From positions 64,459-128,458 of the forward strand of contig JAFZFQ010000021.1 in assembly GCA_017555825.1 (NCBI GenBank): DNA of 64,000 bases, in the 5' to 3' direction. Below the pieces are notes generated by a model, which saw only the letters and a list, made by a program, of their open reading frames with translations, made no database searches and was not told the origin of the DNA. The first letter of the stretch is position 1, and the number at the start of each line of letters is the position of its first letter. Source of the DNA: Bacteroidaceae bacterium. Lineage in GTDB: Bacteria; Bacteroidota; Bacteroidia; Bacteroidales; Barnesiellaceae_A. The position numbers and the translations under genes are program-made. Shown here one piece after another: positions 51,144 to 61,229 of the stretch.

Positions 51144-51983
51144 ATGAAATATATAGGAGCACACGTAAGCGCACAAGGCGGACTCGAAAACGCCGCCATC
51201 AATGCCCACGCCATAGGCGCACGAGCATTTGCACTATTTACCAAGAACCAACGTCAGTGGCAAGCCCCGGCACTCACCGCCAAGAGCATCGAAGCCTTCA
51301 AGGCCGCATGTGCACAATATGGCTACACCCCCAACCACATACTACCCCACGACAGCTACCTCATCAACCTGGGACACCCCGAAGCCGATGGGCTCGAAAA
51401 GTCGCGCCAATCGTTTATCCACGAGATGCAACGCTGTGAGGCACTCGGACTCACCATGCTCAACTTCCACCCCGGTAGCCACCTGCGAGCCATAGACCTC
51501 GACACCTGCCTCACACGCATAGCCGACAGCATAAACATGGCCCTCGAACAAACAAACGGCGTAACAGCCGTCATAGAGAACACCGCCGGACAAGGTAGCA
51601 ACGTAGGCTTCGACTTTGCCCACCTTGCCGCCATTATAGACCGCGTCGAAGACAAGAGTCGCGTAGGAGTGTGCATAGACACCTGCCACGCCTATGCCGC
51701 AGGCTACGACCTCGCCACCGACGAAGGTTTCGCCAAGACCTGGCAAGAATTTGACAACATTGTCGGATTTAACTACCTGCGAGGCATGCACCTCAACGAC
51801 GCCAAGAAAGGCCTGGGATCGCGCGTCGACCGCCACGACAGCCTCGGCAAAGGCATACTCGGCACACGCTGCTTCGAGCTACTCATGCAAGACCCGCGCT
51901 TCGACAACATACCCCTCATACTCGAAACCCCCGACGAAACCCTCTGGGCACAAGAAATAGAGTGGCTATATAGCCTTGCCTAG
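51144..51983 (+). CDS. nfo: endonuclease IV (deoxyribonuclease IV)
   Basis: 279 aa. Conserved blocks are [23 protein letters not shown] and CIDTCH. A TAAGTTTG box lies at 51090-51097. Confidence 0.95.
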
Positions 51984-53177
51984 TAAGCACCAAACAACAC
52001 TTTTCTTTCTTTGATGTGATTACAGACAACGCGATGGCAACATCGACAGCACCCATTTGTGTTGTGAATTGATGAAATTTTGTATCTTTGATGTGATTAC
52101 AGACAACGTACAATCAGCGCGAAGCCGTTAGCGGTGTGTTGTGAATTGATGAAATTTTGTATCTTTGATGTGATTACAGACAACTTATTTGAACTCATAA
52201 ACTACGCAGAAGTTGTGAATTGATGAAATTTTGTATCTTTGATGTGATTACAGACAACTCTCTCTTCACTCTCTCAAGCTCGCCGCTCGTTGTGAATTGA
52301 TGAAATTTTGTATCTTTGATGTGATTACAGACAACAGCTGATTGACCGCTTGGAACACTTGCTTTGTTGTGAATTGATGAAATTTTGTATCTTTGATGTG
52401 ATTACAGACAACTTTAAGCGATTAAATAGCCCACTTTTTGTAGTTGTGAATTGATGAAATTTTGTATCTTTGATGTGATTACAGACAACGATATGCCGAA
52501 GCAACCACGAACCATTGTGTTGTGAATTGATGAAATTTTGTATCTTTGATGTGATTACAGACAACCGTGAGGTTCTGCACCATCGCGGAATGTTGGTTGT
52601 GAATTGATGAAATTTTGTATCTTTGATGTGATTACAGACAACTCAACAATGAAAAAGATAGTATTTGTATTAGTTGTGAATTGATGAAATTTTGTATCTT
52701 TGATGTGATTACAGACAACATACCATTAACTAATGGCAAATTTATTGAGGTTGTGAATTGATGAAATTTTGTATCTTTGATGTGATTACAGACAACCTCA
52801 CCTATCTCTATACCTCCATATCTTTGTTGTGAATTGATGAAATTTTGTATCTTTGATGTGATTACAGACAACCTACACTTTGCCGAACCCTCATCTATCA
52901 AGGTTGTGAATTGATGAAATTTTGTATCTTTGATGTGATTACAGACAACGCACCACGAAGATTGTGCTGAACGCTTCCGTTGTGAATTGATGAAATTTTG
53001 TATCTTTGATGTGATTACAGACAACGCATTGACGGATTGAAGAAACGATAACCCGTTGTGAATTGATGAAATTTTGTATCTTTGATGTGATTACAGACAA
53101 CGCCGAGTATAACCACGCCGTACACACTACGTTGTGAATTGATGAAATTTTGTATCTTTGATGTGATTACAGACAAC
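51984..53177 (+). CRISPR. CRISPR array: 15 identical 47-nt repeats + 1 degenerate terminal repeat, 15 spacers (type II-C style)
   Basis: The repeat is GTTGTGAATTGATGAAATTTTGTATCTTTGATGTGATTACAGACAAC. Copies start at 52061, 52138, 52212, 52289, 52366, 52443, 52519, 52596, 52673, 52750, 52826, 52903, 52979, 53055 and 53131. The degenerate copy at 51984-52030 has only its last 23 nt identical. Spacers are unique and 27-30 nt long. The + strand is assigned from tracrRNA complementarity and the repeat-internal promoter box. Confidence 0.97.
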
Positions 53178-53249
53178 ACAATATTCGCATCAAATTGTAT
53201 ATCAACAAGATATACCGCAGATTAGAAATAAAAAAAATGTCTGTAAAAC

Positions 53250-53282
53250 AACAAAACCGGCCTTGTAAAGGTCGGTTTTGTT
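53250..53282. terminator. hairpin between the array and the cas2 stop
   Basis: AACAAAACCGGCC-ttgtaaa-GGTCGGTTTTGTT: a 13-bp stem in which one position is G:U on the + transcript but A/C on the minus transcript. A T8 run follows on the minus strand (the cas2 side). Confidence 0.6.
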
Positions 53283-53285
53283 GTT

Positions 53286-53627
<342 letters not shown>

Positions 53628-54560
53628 CTAAAGTGTAGGATAAGCAATCTTACGCACTTCTCCCGTGAAACATGCTGCCAATGATGCTGTAGTACGACCC
53701 ATAGCCACCATTAATGGGCTGTGTCGTCCCTCGATATTAACATCGAGCACGGGTATTGTGAGCAGTTGTGACTTGATGTCGCGCGAGAGTTGCGTTATAT
53801 CGCCACACTCGCGCACTATATCGGCCACTAAACAATCCACATAGGGACGATATGGCTCCATGATATCGTCTGCTAGGCAATAGGCATTGTAGCGGTTGTG
53901 ATGATGTATGCCCAAGGTGGGTAAGAGTCCGCTACCCACCAAAGCCCTTGCCACTACGGCACGCAGTATTGCGTAGCCGTAGTTGAGCAAATTGTTGGGA
54001 GGCTCACCTTCACGTCCGCGCTCAAAATCGGGGTATTGCGGGAAAAACGTACGCCAATAATAGACTGCTGCACGCGCCTCGTAGTTGTCGGGGTCGCCAC
54101 TGCGCACATCGCGCGCCCATGCACGCATATTGCCTACCTCGCACCCCACTACGTGTTGCAAAGCCGTGGCTTGGTTGTTTATCTTGGCTTGTACGGTTTG
54201 TTGCCACAACTGCTTTTTGAGTGGCAACGAAGCCTCTATCTGATATCGAAATCGTTCACTCTGCAACGTGTTACCATCGAGGGGCAACATCAATCCGGTG
54301 GGCATGTGGTTGCTGTCGCACGACACCACAGCACAATTATTATTGAGCAGAGCCTCAAGCACTGCTTGTGTTATGGTTATCTGCTTGTTGTCGAGCACCA
54401 CTACCCCTATATCCTCAATGGGAATCATGCGCACCGCATCTTGCTTGAAGCTATCGGGCAAAGTATCATTGCGCTCTACCTCAGGTAGCTTTATCACCAA
54501 CTGGCTATTCTTGAGGCTTAAATAGGCCGGATTGCTGAAACAGATTGTTTTCTTTATCAT
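53628..54560 (-). CDS. cas1: CRISPR-associated endonuclease Cas1 (type II)
   Basis: 310 aa. Conserved C-terminal blocks are NNLLNYGYAILRA, LGIHHHN and LADDIMEPYRP. The start codon lies 1 nt after the cas9 stop. Confidence 0.9.
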   Translation of the reverse strand: MIKKTICFSNPAYLSLKNSQLVIKLPEVERNDTLPDSFKQDAVRMIPIEDIGVVVLDNKQITITQAVLEALLNNNCAVVSCDSNHMPTGLMLPLDGNTLQSERFRYQIEASLPLKKQLWQQTVQAKINNQATALQHVVGCEVGNMRAWARDVRSGDPDNYEARAAVYYWRTFFPQYPDFERGREGEPPNNLLNYGYAILRAVVARALVGSGLLPTLGIHHHNRYNAYCLADDIMEPYRPYVDCLVADIVRECGDITQLSRDIKSQLLTIPVLDVNIEGRHSPLMVAMGRTTASLAACFTGEVRKIAYPTL

Positions 54561-54561
54561 A

Positions 54562-57500
54562 TCATTCTCTACCTTTTATAGAAATATTTCCCAATCTATC
54601 AATCTTGAGGGGCAGGCATATTTCTTTGATCATCTCATCTGTCCATGCTCTTTCTGATTTATTATTACTACCCAATTCAACAGTTTGAGCAATAGGATTG
54701 GCAATATTCACCGGCACAAAAAATACTTGAGATTTCGAGCAACTCACCATTTTATAGATACGACTCTTATCTATCGAGGTTATCTCACCACCATCCGACG
54801 GAACGTAAACCAAATCATTGGGCGATAGGACATACTTAGGACTATTGCCAGACTCGTCGGCAGGAGCCGGCGACAAGCCTTGCTTGAGTCTATCCATCAC
54901 AACATTCAAGGGAATTGTTGCAAAAGTTCGTTTCTTCACAATAGCTCCGGTCTCCTCATTTACCAACTCGTTTTCGTATATTGCAAAATATAAATTAGTA
55001 CCTTTGTCCGCCTCTACAAACTTGCTTACTTTGTTACCGACCTGACCAACGGCAAATTTATCGGCTTTTTCATATACGCGCACCTTGTATATAGGCTGAT
55101 GTAATTTACCACCATTGAGTTGTTGAATATTTCTATTCATTTCATCAATTCCATCTTCAGAGAAGGCCAATTCGGGATTACCGCCATAGTTCTCAAGATG
55201 ATTCAATAATATCTTACATATACCACTATCGGTTACACTCGACTCTATCTTCTTCTTATCGAAACTTGTGTCCAACACCTTTCGCGTAGCAAAATAGCGG
55301 TCTTTTGTATCCTTTGTAAAGTAATACACATCTACCTTAGAGAGATTTATATCACTCCACACATCTTTATTTTCATCAATATGCTTTTTGATTTTCTTGG
55401 CATCCAATCCTTTGTCCAACAACATCAAGACTTCCTTTTTAAACTCTTTCACGACAATACACTCGGGATGCTTAAGAGCTTCATTCAAAGAAACAGCCTT
55501 TATCTTTCTCAAATTCACCTCTCCATACACTGTATCTTTGTGCATAGACTTGCGTATAGCCCAATTAGTAGGCATTCCCGCACCACCTTGTTTACACACA
55601 ACCTTCTTGCCTGTAGCGGGGTCGTACTTGGTATAATAGTTATTGGCCTTATTGATAACACGAAGATTTTGCTTGAAACTTGCAACAATATCATTGAGGG
55701 TTTTATAGACATCTTCGGTAAACGACAACCAAGGTTTCTTCAGTTGCCATTTATAATTGCCATTTAAATCAGTCTTGACCTTCTCGCACAAAATCTGTTG
55801 TAAGTCGTGTCTTGAAATCTGGGCCTTGGCACTGGCCGACTCATTATTGAGATAGTTTACAATATTTCGGTTTGCACATGCTATCACAATAGCATCCATC
55901 GCATGATGACGATGATCTATGCGTTTTTTATTGAACCCTTTTTGCAAATCTATAGGTATGCTGGGTACTTCATGACCGTTGGCTGTAAATGCAGTAAACT
56001 GATTTGTATCTTTCAGTTGATTTAAGCGTTGGAAACGAGGCAGTACAATTTTGTTCCATACATCATTCACACCCCAATCTTTTTTCAAGCGATCGGTTAC
56101 ACCTCCGGTACATACAATTACATTTTTTGAAACCGCCTCTTCCTCGCCCTCCTCTCTAACAACATTAGACATTAGATTCTTTACAAGTTTGCTTATATAT
56201 CTACTATCGTTAAGCTGACGAGCAATAAAATCTTCGGGAATACTTTCCATCAATAACTTACGCATCTTCTCACGATTGGCCGAATAGTATTTTTTCACAA
56301 AGTCCTCATACTCATCCTCTGTAAAAATTCTAACTACCTTACCAAAACTGAGTTCTACTTTTTCACCATGATGTTTTTTGATAAATTCATAACCCAATTT
56401 ATTATCTTTGAGTTTGTTTACCTCCGACTCACATATAACTTTATTGCTGAAAGAGTCATCGAAGAAACGCGACTGTGGAATTATGTGCTCTATTTCATAC
56501 ATTGGTGTAAAGAGTTTACCCAAAGGTATTATCTCTCCGGTATAGGGCGAGCGATATTTTTGCTCCAACCACAATTTATATCGCAACACTTCGCTACGAG
56601 TCGGACGCTTCTTAACATCACTCTCGCTAAATTTCTTGATAATGGTACTAATTTCTTCGGGCAATTCTGAGACGCTATTCAAAACACCATCTTCATAAAT
56701 ACGCAATATATCTTGTTGACTTGGAGAATGTGGACGCACGTTGTCTATATCGAATTCCAGATTCATAAACTCCATCAACATTGCCTTAATACGCAAATTG
56801 GTATTTTCGTTTTCAATAACACGTTCAGTAATACGTTTGCGCTTATCGGCCGGATTTTTCATTTCTCTGCCCAACTCAATGTGTATCTCATCAATATGTC
56901 CAACTTGTTTCCAGATATCACGCACTGTACGCAACGTCTCTGTAATAACTTGTTCTACAATTGGGTTACGCAAAGAGTGTTGCTTAAACGATTTTAGATA
57001 ATTATCTACATCCTCGGGAGTGTTCCACTTATGGAGTTCGCCCGACTCGGCATGTCGGCCATAGACAACATAACATGCAAGCCACAAAGGCAAGCCTCTA
57101 AAGTCTGCAATATTATTGAGATGTATCGTTTTCTCTCTTACTCTCAACTTTATATTGTCATCATATTCTCCTGTTATCAACTTCTCAATACGCTCCTTGG
57201 TATACTCGTCAATGGCTTGCTCTCGCCAATATTTACCACAACGCATGAGAGGCAACAACTTCTTGATAGCCTTGGCAGAGTATGCTCCATAATCTTTGTC
57301 GAATGGCGGAAATTTCTTGAACACTTCAATAAAACTACTATTCAATGAGTGTTTATAAGCAAATTTTGTCAATGCTTTAACAAACTCCTCTTTGTCGGTA
57401 ACAGAATAGAGTATATGCCATAAATTCTCCTCTATATCATTGGTCAAAAAAGCAGATGATATATCGGCTTTTTTCAGCAACGACAATATTATTGCATGGG

Positions 57501-59070
57501 TTTCATTGCAAGGATAGTTCTTGTCTTGAACATAATTCCATCTATACTGAGCAAGTTGTTTTTTATCAATATATCTACCAAGCAGGGCTTTTTGATTGAT
57601 TTCTTTTCTTTCATTCAGCCAATCGAATAATTCGGCATAATCATCTTCTCCTTTAATAAATTCGGCTGTAACATCTTCATCTTTTGTTGCACCCAACTTA
57701 TAAATGCGCAGATTGCTTATAAACTGCCAAAGTCGAAATTCTTGAAATATGGGATGCGATTTAGCAATACACTTCAATGCGTATCGTGTTTCTTTACCAT
57801 TATTTAGTAGATCTCTTGACACTCTACTTTCATAGGGACAGCTATCAATCAATGATTTTTTACTCTTCAAAGGTCGTTGATAGAAAAGTATATCATCAAC
57901 CAATAAGTAAACAAAATCTCTATGTGCAATATCATTGCGATGAGCAACATTATTGGGATATAGATGCTCTATACAAGAGGCATAGAGGTCTCTATCATTT
58001 AGCTCTGGATGAAATTCTTTTTGCTTCTGCAATATTCGCACAAGTTCTTCTTTATAAAACTTACGTTCAATAGTACGCACCAATTTTCCACGCACCTTTT
58101 GTGTCGGATTTTGCAATATTGCATCATATATATACTCTCCCACACTCTTTCCTGAACTTTGAATATTTGCTTGCGTCTTCTCTTTTACCAACGTCCAATC
58201 TTCTTCTTTAGGAACACGGAAAGAGCGTTTTACATTACCATCTTTATCCTTCTTGGGTGTACCGTCTGTATCCAAATCAGTGGTAACGATAAACTCTTTA
58301 GTTTTTCCCACCCAATCGAGAAATACAGAACTTGGCCTACGATATATCCAACCATTCTCTAAATGGACATTATACCATATATCCTTACCCTTTCTATCAC
58401 CCGAATCTTCTACCGCTACAACTTTCAAGGCATGATACTCAACAAGTTTGTCATTATTTGCCTCATCCTCTTCACCTCGCAACTGATAATATCCTCGTTT
58501 TTGATTGAAATTCAATAATATCCAAGCAAGCTCTTCTTTAGTTATTGGCTTGGATAAAGCCTTCTTGCGAATATAATATATAGTCCAATCATACGGTATT
58601 TTTTTCTTATTGCCATCGTTTCCTATAATTTGTGGGTGGTTCGACGCAAACTCGCACAACATTTCATCAAACGACTCTTGAAATAAGAAATGACTATTAC
58701 CATTTTCATCATGAGCCCACGGCAATTTGGGTTCTTGATTGTTAATAAACTTACCATATCGATCCAACGCACTTGCATAGTGCTGTGGCAAAAAACCACA
58801 CAAATTCAATATTCTATGCAACCTTTCACGACGCAATAGCGCGCGCTCACGCAAATGGCGCATGCCTCGCATCCTTGTTCGTTCTGCCGTTTGTGAAATG
58901 GAATTCCCTCTATCAAAATCACTTAACACCGCAGCATCCAAAGGTATGATGCGAGTTCCTGCATCCTCAATATGCTCTAAATAGGTATTACCATCTATAT
59001 CAGTATTCGCATTTACAACAGCCCATCCTATACTATTTGTTCCTAAGTCTAATCCGAGAATAGTTTTCAT
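54562..59070 (-). CDS. cas9: type II-C CRISPR-associated endonuclease Cas9 (large Bacteroidota form)
   Basis: 1502 aa. RuvC-I is ILGLDLGTNSIGWAV. The bridge helix is arginine-rich (RTRMRGMRHLRERALLRRERLHRIL). RuvC-II is IHIELGREM, HNH is YEIEHIIPQSRFFDDSFSNKV...VNKLKDN, and RuvC-III is DHRHHAMDAIVIA. All catalytic residues appear intact. Confidence 0.95.
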   Translation of the reverse strand: MKTILGLDLGTNSIGWAVVNANTDIDGNTYLEHIEDAGTRIIPLDAAVLSDFDRGNSISQTAERTRMRGMRHLRERALLRRERLHRILNLCGFLPQHYASALDRYGKFINNQEPKLPWAHDENGNSHFLFQESFDEMLCEFASNHPQIIGNDGNKKKIPYDWTIYYIRKKALSKPITKEELAWILLNFNQKRGYYQLRGEEDEANNDKLVEYHALKVVAVEDSGDRKGKDIWYNVHLENGWIYRRPSSVFLDWVGKTKEFIVTTDLDTDGTPKKDKDGNVKRSFRVPKEEDWTLVKEKTQANIQSSGKSVGEYIYDAILQNPTQKVRGKLVRTIERKFYKEELVRILQKQKEFHPELNDRDLYASCIEHLYPNNVAHRNDIAHRDFVYLLVDDILFYQRPLKSKKSLIDSCPYESRVSRDLLNNGKETRYALKCIAKSHPIFQEFRLWQFISNLRIYKLGATKDEDVTAEFIKGEDDYAELFDWLNERKEINQKALLGRYIDKKQLAQYRWNYVQDKNYPCNETHAIILSLLKKADISSAFLTNDIEENLWHILYSVTDKEEFVKALTKFAYKHSLNSSFIEVFKKFPPFDKDYGAYSAKAIKKLLPLMRCGKYWREQAIDEYTKERIEKLITGEYDDNIKLRVREKTIHLNNIADFRGLPLWLACYVVYGRHAESGELHKWNTPEDVDNYLKSFKQHSLRNPIVEQVITETLRTVRDIWKQVGHIDEIHIELGREMKNPADKRKRITERVIENENTNLRIKAMLMEFMNLEFDIDNVRPHSPSQQDILRIYEDGVLNSVSELPEEISTIIKKFSESDVKKRPTRSEVLRYKLWLEQKYRSPYTGEIIPLGKLFTPMYEIEHIIPQSRFFDDSFSNKVICESEVNKLKDNKLGYEFIKKHHGEKVELSFGKVVRIFTEDEYEDFVKKYYSANREKMRKLLMESIPEDFIARQLNDSRYISKLVKNLMSNVVREEGEEEAVSKNVIVCTGGVTDRLKKDWGVNDVWNKIVLPRFQRLNQLKDTNQFTAFTANGHEVPSIPIDLQKGFNKKRIDHRHHAMDAIVIACANRNIVNYLNNESASAKAQISRHDLQQILCEKVKTDLNGNYKWQLKKPWLSFTEDVYKTLNDIVASFKQNLRVINKANNYYTKYDPATGKKVVCKQGGAGMPTNWAIRKSMHKDTVYGEVNLRKIKAVSLNEALKHPECIVVKEFKKEVLMLLDKGLDAKKIKKHIDENKDVWSDINLSKVDVYYFTKDTKDRYFATRKVLDTSFDKKKIESSVTDSGICKILLNHLENYGGNPELAFSEDGIDEMNRNIQQLNGGKLHQPIYKVRVYEKADKFAVGQVGNKVSKFVEADKGTNLYFAIYENELVNEETGAIVKKRTFATIPLNVVMDRLKQGLSPAPADESGNSPKYVLSPNDLVYVPSDGGEITSIDKSRIYKMVSCSKSQVFFVPVNIANPIAQTVELGSNNKSERAWTDEMIKEICLPLKIDRLGNISIKGRE

Positions 59071-59141
59071 AAAATTGAATTTAAATTTTTCGCAAGTTAA
59101 GAAATATTTGTCTTAAACTATTATTTAGTTTGAAAATTTAT

Positions 59142-59149
59142 TATATTTG
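59142..59149 (+). promoter_or_regulatory. -7 box TATATTTG driving the predicted tracrRNA
   Basis: Exact TAnnTTTG match 6 nt upstream of the start of anti-repeat complementarity. It is divergent from the cas9 start at 59070. Confidence 0.5.
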
Positions 59150-59152
59150 CAA

Positions 59153-59240
59153 CATAAAATTTCATCAATTCACAATAAGGATTATTCCGTTGTGAAAACA
59201 TTTAAAGTGGGGGTAGATTTATGCTGCTCTCGCTTTTTTT
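59153..59240 (+). ncRNA. predicted tracrRNA
   Basis: 59156-59175 (AAAATTTCATCAATTCACAA) is a perfect reverse complement of repeat positions 2-21, extendable to ~24 bp with G:U pairs. It is followed by AAGGATTATTCCGTT, which resembles the SpCas9 tracrRNA nexus AAGGCTAGTCCGTT. Then comes the stem GTGGGGGTAG (59207-59216) / CTGCTCTCGC (59224-59233) and a T7 run (59234-59240). The 5' end is approximate. Confidence 0.8.
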
Positions 59241-59359
59241 GTGTGAGCGAGTTGCGGGAAATAAAAGCTTTTTAACACACCTATCACGATTTGTTGCACA
59301 TGTGTGGCGGTACATTTGCAGTGTTAACCGATGTTTAACCTTGACAAATACATACTGCT

Positions 59360-59635
59360 ATGATGACTGCAATGGAACGTTTTGTGATGCAACCGAGTGA
59401 ATGTGCGGGCTGGTGGATGGTGGTGGATACTGCCAATTTTATTTCGGTGCGATTTAAGGCGGGCGAGTTTGACGAGACGATGCTGCCCATTATCCACTCT
59501 ATGCCTGGCGACACTGCCAAGAGCAAGGCCGAGAGGATGATACGATCGATTACCGACATTGAGCAGTACATGGACGAGTTTCACCACGATATAGCTTTCG
59601 GCAAGGCGAGTCGTGCAGTGTCGTGGGCTTTCTGA
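59360..59635 (+). CDS. small hypothetical protein (91 aa)
   Basis: A TACATTTG box at 59311-59318 lies 42 nt upstream of the ATG. Composition looks host-like, unlike the AT-rich cas block. I recognise no motifs. Confidence 0.5.
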   Translation: MMTAMERFVMQPSECAGWWMVVDTANFISVRFKAGEFDETMLPIIHSMPGDTAKSKAERMIRSITDIEQYMDEFHHDIAFGKASRAVSWAF

Positions 59636-59795
59636 CGTGGCACGGGCTCTGTGATGCAGATTGGGTTGTTACATTAGAGTAGAACTGTGTGGCATCGAAA
59701 AAGAAAATCGAACAAGTTCGCTTCTTTTTCACTCACCTTTCACTATCTTTGCCACACAGATATAGGTAACAACATTAAAATCACTTTATAATCGT

Positions 59796-61229
59796 ATGAA
59801 ACGCATTCTACTTTCTGCAGCAACATTGCTTGCTGTATCGATGAGCCTTGTGAGCTGTTGCAACAAGTGCTCGCAAACTCCTGCCGAGGTTACTAACGAC
59901 GAGGTTATCTTGCACGCTTGGTCGTGGTCGTTCAATACCATTGGCGAGAATATGAAGTTGATAGCCGAGGCGGGCTACGACATGGTGCAAACTTCGCCTG
60001 CACAAACATGCTTTGTGGGTGAGGATGGCGGCCTTGCTCTGTGGAGCGAGGAGGGCGATGCCGTACGTGGCAAATGGTACTACTACTACCAACCCATCGA
60101 CTGGAAGATTGGTAACTATATGCTGGGCTCGCGCGACGAATTTAAGGCTATGTGCGATAGCGCCCACAAATATGGTGTGCGCGTGCTTGTAGACGTGTTG
60201 CCCAACCACGTTGCCATAGACCACACTGCTGTGACCGCTGCTCTTGATAGTGTAGTAGGTGGCCATGAGAACTTGTTCCACGCCAACGGCTTTACCGATA
60301 TTACTCAATGGAACGACCGCTTTGAGTGTACTACAGGTATGATGGGTAAACTGCCCGACGTGAATACCGAGAATCCCGAGTTTCAATACTACTACATGAA
60401 GTATGTAAACGACCTCATCGCTTGTGGCGCTCGTGGCTTCCGCTACGACACTGCCAAGCACATAGGCTTGCCCAGCGACCCCACCGACGAGAAATCGGAG
60501 CGTAACAACTTCTGGGACATTGCCACCGGTCGCGAGGCTATCAAAGACATCACATTGCTCTACCCCGACAGCCTCTTTATCTATGGCGAGGTGTTGCAAG
60601 ACAAGAACGTAAAGGAACTTGAGTATGCCGAGTATATGGACCTCACTGCCAGCAACTATGGCGGTGCATTGCGTCATGCACTCGAACAACACAACTACCA
60701 CGCTGCCGACTTGGCTCAATGGCACCACCCCGTAGCCCCCAACCGCTTGGTAACATGGGTCGAGTCGCACGACACCTATTGCAATGGCCATGAGTCGGCC
60801 GGTATCAGCGACGAGCTCATTCGCCAAGGATATGTATTCCTCACTGCTCGTCAAAACGGCACACCCTTGTTCTACAGCCGTCCTGCCGGTAGCACTCGCG
60901 ACAACTACTACGGCAACAACCGCGTAGGCGACCGTGGTAACGACGAGTTCTTCCATCCCGAGGTTGTAGCTGCCATCGCATTCCGCAAGGCTATGAGCGG
61001 TTGCGCCGAGCAAGTAGAAGCATCGGAAAACGGTGCTGTTATCGAGGTATTGCGCGCCGACAAGGGTGCAACCCTCATCAACATCAGCGAGGAGGCACAA
61101 AGCATTGCCATGACAACCACCCTCCCCGCAGGCGAGTATACCGACAAGGTACACAACACAACATTTACTGTAGCCGACGGCATCATCAGTGGCGAGTTAG
61201 CCCCCCTTGCATCGTACGTTATTTACTAA
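59796..61229 (+). CDS. alpha-amylase, GH13 family lipoprotein
   Basis: 477 aa with lipobox LVSC. The GH13 regions are VDVLPNHVA (I), GFRYDTAKHI (II), YGEVL (III) and WVESHD (IV). A TATCTTTG box lies at 59744-59751. Confidence 0.9.
   Translation: MKRILLSAATLLAVSMSLVSCCNKCSQTPAEVTNDEVILHAWSWSFNTIGENMKLIAEAGYDMVQTSPAQTCFVGEDGGLALWSEEGDAVRGKWYYYYQPIDWKIGNYMLGSRDEFKAMCDSAHKYGVRVLVDVLPNHVAIDHTAVTAALDSVVGGHENLFHANGFTDITQWNDRFECTTGMMGKLPDVNTENPEFQYYYMKYVNDLIACGARGFRYDTAKHIGLPSDPTDEKSERNNFWDIATGREAIKDITLLYPDSLFIYGEVLQDKNVKELEYAEYMDLTASNYGGALRHALEQHNYHAADLAQWHHPVAPNRLVTWVESHDTYCNGHESAGISDELIRQGYVFLTARQNGTPLFYSRPAGSTRDNYYGNNRVGDRGNDEFFHPEVVAAIAFRKAMSGCAEQVEASENGAVIEVLRADKGATLINISEEAQSIAMTTTLPAGEYTDKVHNTTFTVADGIISGELAPLASYVIY

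Follow-up and report, generated by a model that had tools for sequence, protein, structure and literature searches.

Does the DNA upstream of the cas9 gene in a Bacteroidota CRISPR-Cas9 locus encode a functional tracrRNA, in which direction is the accompanying array read, and does the RNA belong with the Cas9 that lies next to it? These questions are raised by a locus in a gut metagenome-assembled genome, of which a stretch of 64,000 nucleotides, here called the window, was analyzed. Judged by its gene content, the locus is a complete type II-C system with cas9, cas1, cas2 and an array (Table 1). The cas genes abut (54562/54560 and 53628/53618) and a further cas ORF (csn2, cas4) is absent. There is no spare ORF between cas9, cas1 and cas2, which bears on the PcrIIC1 accessory gene of CbCas9-type systems. 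The locus is flanked by nfo and by a 91-aa ORF without family matches. The closest solved structure to the window Cas9 is that of CbCas9 from Chryseobacterium (8iyq, 1522 bits), whose complexes with guide RNA have been solved (PDB 8iyq/8wmh). The segment at 59154-59240 of the + strand is very probably the functional tracrRNA gene of this type II-C locus. It is 6 kb away from the array, on the same strand, and about 85 bp upstream of cas9, on the opposite strand.

Table 1. Features of the CRISPR-Cas9 locus and of the predicted tracrRNA gene, in window coordinates
Feature	Position	Strand	Evidence or remark
Degenerate 'extra' repeat; only the 3' 23 nt (52008-52030) kept	51984-52030	+	
CRISPR array: 15 identical 47-nt repeats, 15 spacers including one at 52031-52060	52061-53177	+	
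19-bp hairpin between array and cas2	53246-53286	both strands	-26.5 and -24.3 kcal/mol, z about -8
cas2, 110 aa	53286-53618	-	TIGR01573, 76 bits
cas1, 310 aa	53628-54560	-	TIGR03639 cas1_NMENI, 310 bits
cas9, 1502 aa	54562-59070	-	TIGR01865, 423 bits; catalytic motifs conserved in alignment
Candidate cas9 promoter box TAACTTGC (TAnnTTGY variant), 21 nt before ATG	59099-59092	-	
-7 promoter box TATATTTG (TAnnTTTG), Bacteroidota sigma-A type	59142-59149	+	tracrRNA gene
Predicted tracrRNA, ~85-87 nt: anti-repeat, nexus hairpin, linker, intrinsic terminator	59154-59240	+	
Anti-repeat: 20 Watson-Crick pairs (59156-59175) plus U:G, U:G, A:U; partner is repeat positions 1-23	59154-59176	+	
Nexus AAGGAUUAUUCC; stem G59179-A59181 / U59186-C59188, loop UUAU	59177-59188	+	fold; invariant in 38/38 aligned loci
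Linker GUUGUGAAAACAUUU	59189-59203	+	fold of free RNA; GTTGTGAAAAC nearly invariant in family
Intrinsic terminator: 13-bp stem, four G:U pairs, 7-nt loop (59204-59236) + T7	59204-59240	+	

The core of the anti-repeat, AAAATTTCATCAATTCACAA at 59156-59175, is perfectly complementary to positions 2-21 of the 47-nt repeat GTTGTGAATTGATGAAATTTTGTATCTTTGATGTGATTACAGACAAC, as an earlier note on this DNA had stated. The note had also extended the duplex through G:U-compatible positions to about 24 bp. The extension is real, with U59176:G1, U59155:G22 and A59154:U23 lengthening the helix, but it ends at 23 contiguous pairs, the 24th position being a mismatch of C59153 and A24. The duplex has a calculated energy of -26.0 kcal/mol (RNAduplex), compared to a mean of -13.8 and a best value of -15.7 kcal/mol in 200 shuffled anti-repeats. 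Co-folding, which the note had suggested as a check of the repeat:anti-repeat duplex, yields the expected duplex, a 3-bp nexus hairpin (GGA/UCC) and the terminator. The nexus-like string recognized in the note, AAGGATTATTCCGTT, is located at 59177-59191, immediately 3' of the anti-repeat.

The remainder of the gene is likewise close to its first description. The terminator stem GUGGGGGUAG/CUGCUCUCGC, described as 10 bp long, contains the four G:U pairs ascribed to it and, with the flanking AAA/UUU added, is 13 bp long. The final three positions of this stem fall within the T7 run at 59234-59240. The hairpin was expected to form in the + strand RNA only and to be followed by U7. It is indeed strand specific, with -15.9 kcal/mol (z -5.25) for the + strand RNA versus -1.6 kcal/mol (z -0.62) for the - strand. 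The promoter box TATATTTG is present exactly where the note had placed it. In Flavobacterium psychrophilum, the TAnnTTTG box spans positions -12 to -5 of mapped transcription starts (PMC9723704). The same spacing puts the tracrRNA start at about 59154, so that the RNA would open with the anti-repeat and be 85-87 nt long, close to the ~88 nt of the note but slightly shorter. More generally, the start is placed by the promoter box (+1 at about 59154-59156) and the end by the U-tract. The cas9 start, thought to be about 80 bp away on the other strand, is the ATG at 59070 (-), about 85 bp from the predicted tracrRNA start. At the level of sequence, the tracrRNA has the attributes of its own transcription unit: a TAnnTTTG box at the modal distance of the family and a hairpin with T7 that forms on the + strand only.

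Some observations count against this reading. Upstream of the tracrRNA box, a -33 TTG is not clearly recognizable at the canonical spacing. When the free RNA is folded, the final 8 nt of the anti-repeat are predicted to be tied up in a cis hairpin formed with the linker. The linker begins with an 8-nt copy of the repeat 5' end, which can pair in cis with the 3' end of the anti-repeat. A long-form, self-targeting tracrRNA, as in S. pyogenes, was also considered; a second exact promoter box is absent upstream.

The element is unique in its genome. In the 2.09-Mb, 70-contig assembly, the 20-mer anti-repeat is the sole such match outside the array (blastn-short E=5.9e-5). A better anti-repeat elsewhere, which by the note's own reckoning would tell against its proposal, was found neither in the window nor in the 2.09-Mb genome, where the next best match is 15 nt long (E=0.056). 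The 23-nt core that comprises the nexus and linker occurs once, with no second copy in the genome. A scan of 51500-60000 against Rfam (E<=10) produced chance-level matches only and no tracrRNA family. Any Rfam model of a Cas9 tracrRNA would presumably rest on type II-A sequences, so that the lack of a match does not weigh against function. The sequencing runs that contain the tracrRNA sequence are DNA gut metagenomes only.

Related loci have retained the same arrangement. In four relatives of the window Cas9 (53-61% identical, from other families of the same order) a tracrRNA-like element is found just upstream of, and antisense to, cas9. Its parts are a box of the TAnnTTTG type, an anti-repeat, TCACAATAAGGATTATTCCGTTGTGAAAAC, and a hairpin with a T-run. 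When one genome per species was scanned, 80 loci emerged with Cas9 proteins 49-69% identical to that of the window, from Bacteroidales, Flavobacteriales, Chitinophagales and others. With no more than one mismatch allowed, the 23-nt core AAGGATTATTCCGTTGTGAAAAC is shared by 72 related loci, the window included. It is antisense to cas9 in 68/68 loci of the oriented contig set, which is a subset of the 72, at a median of 103 nt upstream of the ATG. An exact TAnnTTTG box precedes the core in 54 of the 72 loci, and in 36 of these the G of the box is 26-28 nt before the core; the distance in the window is 27 nt. A run of five or more T follows downstream in 63/72 loci, and the sequence before the run folds at a median of -12.7 kcal/mol.

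Evidence for function is also provided by covariation. Repeat nt 1-22 were joined to the anti-repeat in 38 distinct loci that have both an array and a tracrRNA, and the pairs were counted. In this set, 99.5% of the cells pair, and 7 of the 14 duplex pairs have changed on both sides. None of 500 shuffles reaches the observed values, and slid registers pair at 33-51%. The nexus pairs never vary and give no covariation evidence. Positions 12-20 of the window repeat are atypical (ATGAAATTT instead of CTTTCAAAT), and the window's own anti-repeat matches every change. Together, the covariation and these matched atypical positions argue strongly that the RNA:RNA duplex is under selection and, by extension, that the tracrRNA is functional.

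A cis hairpin UUCACAAU / GUUGUGAA around the nexus (window 59170-59196) was examined as a possible selected structure. The free RNA may form it, but it was rejected as a selected structure because the covariation favors the trans duplex. Position 41 of the tracrRNA co-varies with repeat position 8 and not with the invariant linker A68, and positions 42/67 of the cis helix show one compensatory case, two disruptive cases and one wobble.

The anti-repeat also indicates the direction in which the array is read. The + strand anti-repeat is complementary to the + strand repeat, so that crRNAs would come from the + strand too, and transcription of the array would proceed towards cas2 and meet that of the cas operon head-on. 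II-C loci have been published with this layout, their arrays being read against the direction of the cas genes and converging on the cas operon (PMC3737331, PMC12080349). Every repeat contains, on the crRNA strand, TTG at positions 2-4, followed after 18 nt by TATCTTTG at positions 23-30. This TTG-N18-TATCTTTG combination is predicted to be a full Bacteroidota promoter. An exact TAnnTTTG box in + strand sense is found inside 26 of the 37 distinct repeats of the family, compared to 1/37 on the other strand. Repeat-encoded promoters were proposed earlier for Flavobacterium II-C arrays (PMC10309648).

The degenerate repeat is positioned at the far, cas-distal end of the array, directly after nfo, which would be the transcription-upstream end. 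It is without the half that pairs with the tracrRNA, and no repeat-type duplex with the tracrRNA forms. Its promoter box reads TTTCTTTG. A mutated 'extra' repeat at the transcription-upstream end has been described in II-C arrays, where the mutation is proposed to suppress 'extraneous crRNA' (PMC12080349), and by analogy the degenerate repeat of the window would fit this pattern. The + strand orientation of the array, converging on the cas operon, is thus independently supported by the boxes inside the repeats and by the extra repeat at the upstream end. The proposal of the earlier note that crRNA and tracrRNA are both + strand transcripts holds in silico, on account of the covariation, the strand-specific terminator and the + strand boxes in the repeats. 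The 19-bp hairpin at 53246-53286 probably terminates transcription in both directions, where the transcripts of the array and of the cas genes would converge.

The spacers give an indication of what the locus has encountered. A megablast comparison of the array with phage records gave no match, and a more sensitive search produced one spacer match. Protospacers for three further spacers were obtained in scans of IMG/VR. Thus four spacers (52108-52137, 52336-52365, 52950-52978 and 53026-53054) match Bacteroides phages or IMG/VR viral contigs, which suggests that the array recorded real invaders. The phages are Bacuni_F1, F4 and F2 (head-tail connector gene, 1 mismatch), and the matches to IMG/VR viral contigs are perfect. 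The two cas2-proximal spacers, which are presumably the newest, match viral contigs perfectly. The 3' flanks of the four protospacers, GCAGAT, CCAACT, GTAGAT and ATAAAA, all have A at +3 and a purine at +4. They hint at a PAM of NNAR, for which four sites are too few. The use of the PAM as an independent test of orientation was dropped because, with four sites and about 20 columns examined, the agreement is near chance.

From the sequence features, the uniqueness in the genome, the conservation and the repeat:anti-repeat covariation we infer transcription of the element, its exact RNA ends, processing by RNase III or by other means, and binding by Cas9. RNA polymerase with the housekeeping sigma factor would start about 5-7 nt past the TATATTTG box, near 59154-59156, and would halt at the G:U-rich hairpin and U7, releasing about 85 nt of RNA. 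Through its first 21-23 nt, this tracrRNA would form a duplex with the initial 21-23 nt of each repeat in the + strand transcripts from the array; these transcripts probably begin within every repeat at its own TTG-N18-TATCTTTG promoter and head towards cas2. Besides the duplex, Cas9 would bind the nexus hairpin (GGA/UCC), which is invariant, the linker GUUGUGAAAAC and the hairpin of the terminator. The crRNA, made of the spacer and the 5' part of the repeat, would then guide the cleavage of DNA.

A compact control region common to the divergent tracrRNA and cas9 genes is plausible. The cas9 side contains TAACTTGC, a candidate promoter box, and the same string is conserved in the same-genus genome G001 and in the locus L005. 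About 27 relatives have an exact TAnnTTTG box 16-34 nt before the cas9 ATG, and the window has only the variant box.

The relationship between the tracrRNA and the Cas9 next to it is less straightforward. Five genomes of the same genus (G001, G006, G008, G011 and G012) share the same unusual anti-repeat type, AAAA[T/A]TTCATCAA[T/A]TCACAAT, and the same core; the loci L126, L127 and L121 are those of G011, G006 and G001, respectively. The G006 repeat is identical to the window repeat at 45 of 47 positions. The adaptation proteins are also similar, with Cas1 82% (G006) and 77% (G011) and Cas2 88% (G006) and 81% (G011) identical to those of the window. The Cas9 proteins of G006 and G011, however, are 1372-1381 aa long and only 24-26% identical to the window Cas9. 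Enzymes of the large clade from other families share 62-67% identity with the window Cas9, but their loci have more distant Cas1 (66-69%) and Cas2 (71-75%) proteins and anti-repeats of the common type. The window anti-repeat type travels with the genus's shorter Cas9 clade and not with the clade of the window Cas9.

The borders of this discrepancy are sharp. The window and G006 are homologous at the DNA level across the array, cas2 and cas1, up to exactly 54560, where cas1 meets cas9. The homology is regained at 59010, inside the first 60 nt of cas9, and covers the intergenic region as well as the tracrRNA; for G001 and G008 it reaches the right flank. The simplest reading of this pattern is that the cas9 ORF alone was replaced and that the tracrRNA would be resident and older than the present cas9. 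As a further point against the reading of a functional tracrRNA, the window Cas9 appears not to have co-evolved with it, and their compatibility is assumed. Such a swap could work because the 23-nt core is identical in both Cas9 clades, being found in 7/8 genomes that encode the other, shorter clade. The 91-aa ORF (59360-59635) just past the tracrRNA terminator has no match in NCBIfam; DNA homology to G001 and G008 spans it, indicating flanking host sequence outside the swapped cassette.

The locus can also be lost. Metagenomes X1 and X3 contain the full locus at even depth. In two other gut metagenomes, X4 and X6, an allele of the same species lacks the whole locus, and the depth over cas9 is about zero. 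Single contigs from X4 and X6 contain nfo and the degenerate repeat (to 52030), 31 spacer-like nt, and then 59191 onwards (TGTGAAAAC..., the terminator and the right flank). The deletion removes the array, cas2, cas1, cas9 and the 5' half of the tracrRNA. One of its endpoints is inside the tracrRNA linker, in the repeat-like GTTGTGAA, which duplicates the first nucleotides of the repeat. Recombination between these two 8-mers, in the linker and at the repeat start, would give a product from which the junction differs by one T. Separately, the depth over 59068-59324 is 64-160x, compared to about 5-10x in the flanks (X1, X3 and X6), and contigs break at 59178-59195. This spike is attributed to the conserved tracrRNA core, which is common to many co-resident gut Bacteroidales.

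These observations can be combined into a wider proposal, which stands an even chance of being correct. The tracrRNA, repeat, Cas1 and Cas2 would form a genus-resident module, in which only the cas9 ORF (about 54562-59010) was replaced, from a clade about 25% identical, so that one scaffold would serve two deeply diverged Cas9 lineages. In addition, GTTGTGAA (59189-59196) may recombine with the array and cause loss of the locus in one step, as in the two metagenomes.

The same data could be explained differently. The tracrRNA could be real but a leftover of the genus-typical locus, mismatched to the swapped-in cas9, leaving the system crippled or inactive in spite of its complete appearance. 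The low identity (24-26%) to the same-genus Cas9 that goes with the same tracrRNA and repeat, the breaks in DNA homology at the borders of the cas9 ORF and the strains of the same species that have lost the whole locus are all in line with this idea. It is nevertheless improbable, considering that the 23 nt of nexus and linker are identical in both Cas9 clades and that the duplex sequence varies freely inside the large clade. Furthermore, the 15 repeats show no differences, the locus has kept its cas genes intact, and viral contigs contain perfect matches to the two cas2-proximal spacers.

Even less credit can be given to the view that the element is a decayed orphan repeat or a non-transcribed relic beside cas9, whose match to the repeat serves no purpose. 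In its favor, repeats are the presumed origin of tracrRNAs, and the runs that contain the sequence are DNA metagenomes only. A relic, however, would not have retained, over some 70 loci in many families, a promoter box at constant spacing, the unchanged 23-nt core, a terminator specific to one strand and changes that compensate those of the repeat, and this explanation is very improbable. The least probable alternative, to the point of being nearly negligible, is that both RNAs are read from the - strand, in which case the array would run in the same direction as the cas operon and a - strand RNA would carry the anti-repeat at its 3' end. Complementarity by itself does not fix the transcribed strand. 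The - strand, however, has no hairpin (-1.6 kcal/mol) and no terminator, its anti-repeat would be 3' of the scaffold, unlike that of any Cas9 tracrRNA, and the promoter boxes of the repeats are on the + strand (26/37 vs 1/37). A functional + strand tracrRNA thus remains the preferred reading.

The identification of the tracrRNA completes the annotation of one gut-bacterial CRISPR-Cas9 locus and would fix the orientation of its array, which is needed for a correct reading of spacers and PAMs. The 23-nt core is invariant over Bacteroidota Cas9 proteins that are as little as about 25% identical. This invariance and an apparent natural swap that kept the old guide RNAs suggest that guide scaffolds are exchangeable between Cas9 clades, a property of relevance to Cas9 engineering and to the recombination of CRISPR modules. 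The deletion allele shows a route by which a locus is lost within a species.

A tracrRNA family has already been described from Bacteroidota II-C loci whose repeats are 46-48 nt long, and on sequence grounds the window contains a further member. The window shares with this family the ...TCACAAT 3' end of the anti-repeat, the core AAGGATTATTCCGTTGTGAAAAC, a single terminator hairpin and a repeat (47 nt) that starts with GTTGTGA; its array is predicted, as in this family, to converge on the cas operon and to have promoters embedded in the repeats. It differs from the common Bacteroidota type in repeat positions 12-20 and their anti-repeat counterpart (TTCATCAA instead of TGAAAGCAA), in a duplex without a bulge and in a terminator stem that is longer and rich in G:U pairs.

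The nexus string of the type II-A tracrRNA of S. pyogenes is UAAGGCUAGUCCGUU. The nexus UAAGGAUUAUUCCGUU of the window resembles it, and the two RNAs have the same order of modules: anti-repeat, nexus, 3' hairpin and terminator. The RNA of the window has a single 3' hairpin where that of S. pyogenes has two, its duplex is free of bulges, the repeat is 47 nt and not 36 nt long, and the promoter is of the Bacteroidota type. The II-C loci of N. meningitidis and C. jejuni are similar to that of the window in containing cas9, cas1 and cas2 only, in an array transcribed, by prediction in the window, opposite to the cas genes from a promoter in each repeat (PMC3737331, PMC12080349), and in the mutated 'extra' repeat at the transcription-upstream end. 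Their promoters have an extended -10 element, whereas that of the window is TTG/TAnnTTTG. The predicted start in the window is inside the repeat, about 11-13 nt before the spacer, and the window Cas9 is about 400 aa larger.

The position of the tracrRNA, upstream of and divergent from cas9, is common to the window, R. anatipestifer CRISPR1, F. psychrophilum, F. columnare and loci of the CbCas9 clade. In R. anatipestifer CRISPR1, a 16-nt anti-repeat, TGAAAGCAATTCACAA, is located upstream of cas9 (PMC5006608), and the tracrRNA of F. psychrophilum is drawn upstream of cas9 (PMC10309648). The closest parallel to the proposed swap is the change from Fp1Cas9 to Fp2Cas9 in F. psychrophilum, in which cas9 alone was exchanged by recombination between the conserved tracrRNA and cas1 (PMC10309648). 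The window differs from this case in that its incoming and resident Cas9 clades are only about 25% identical.
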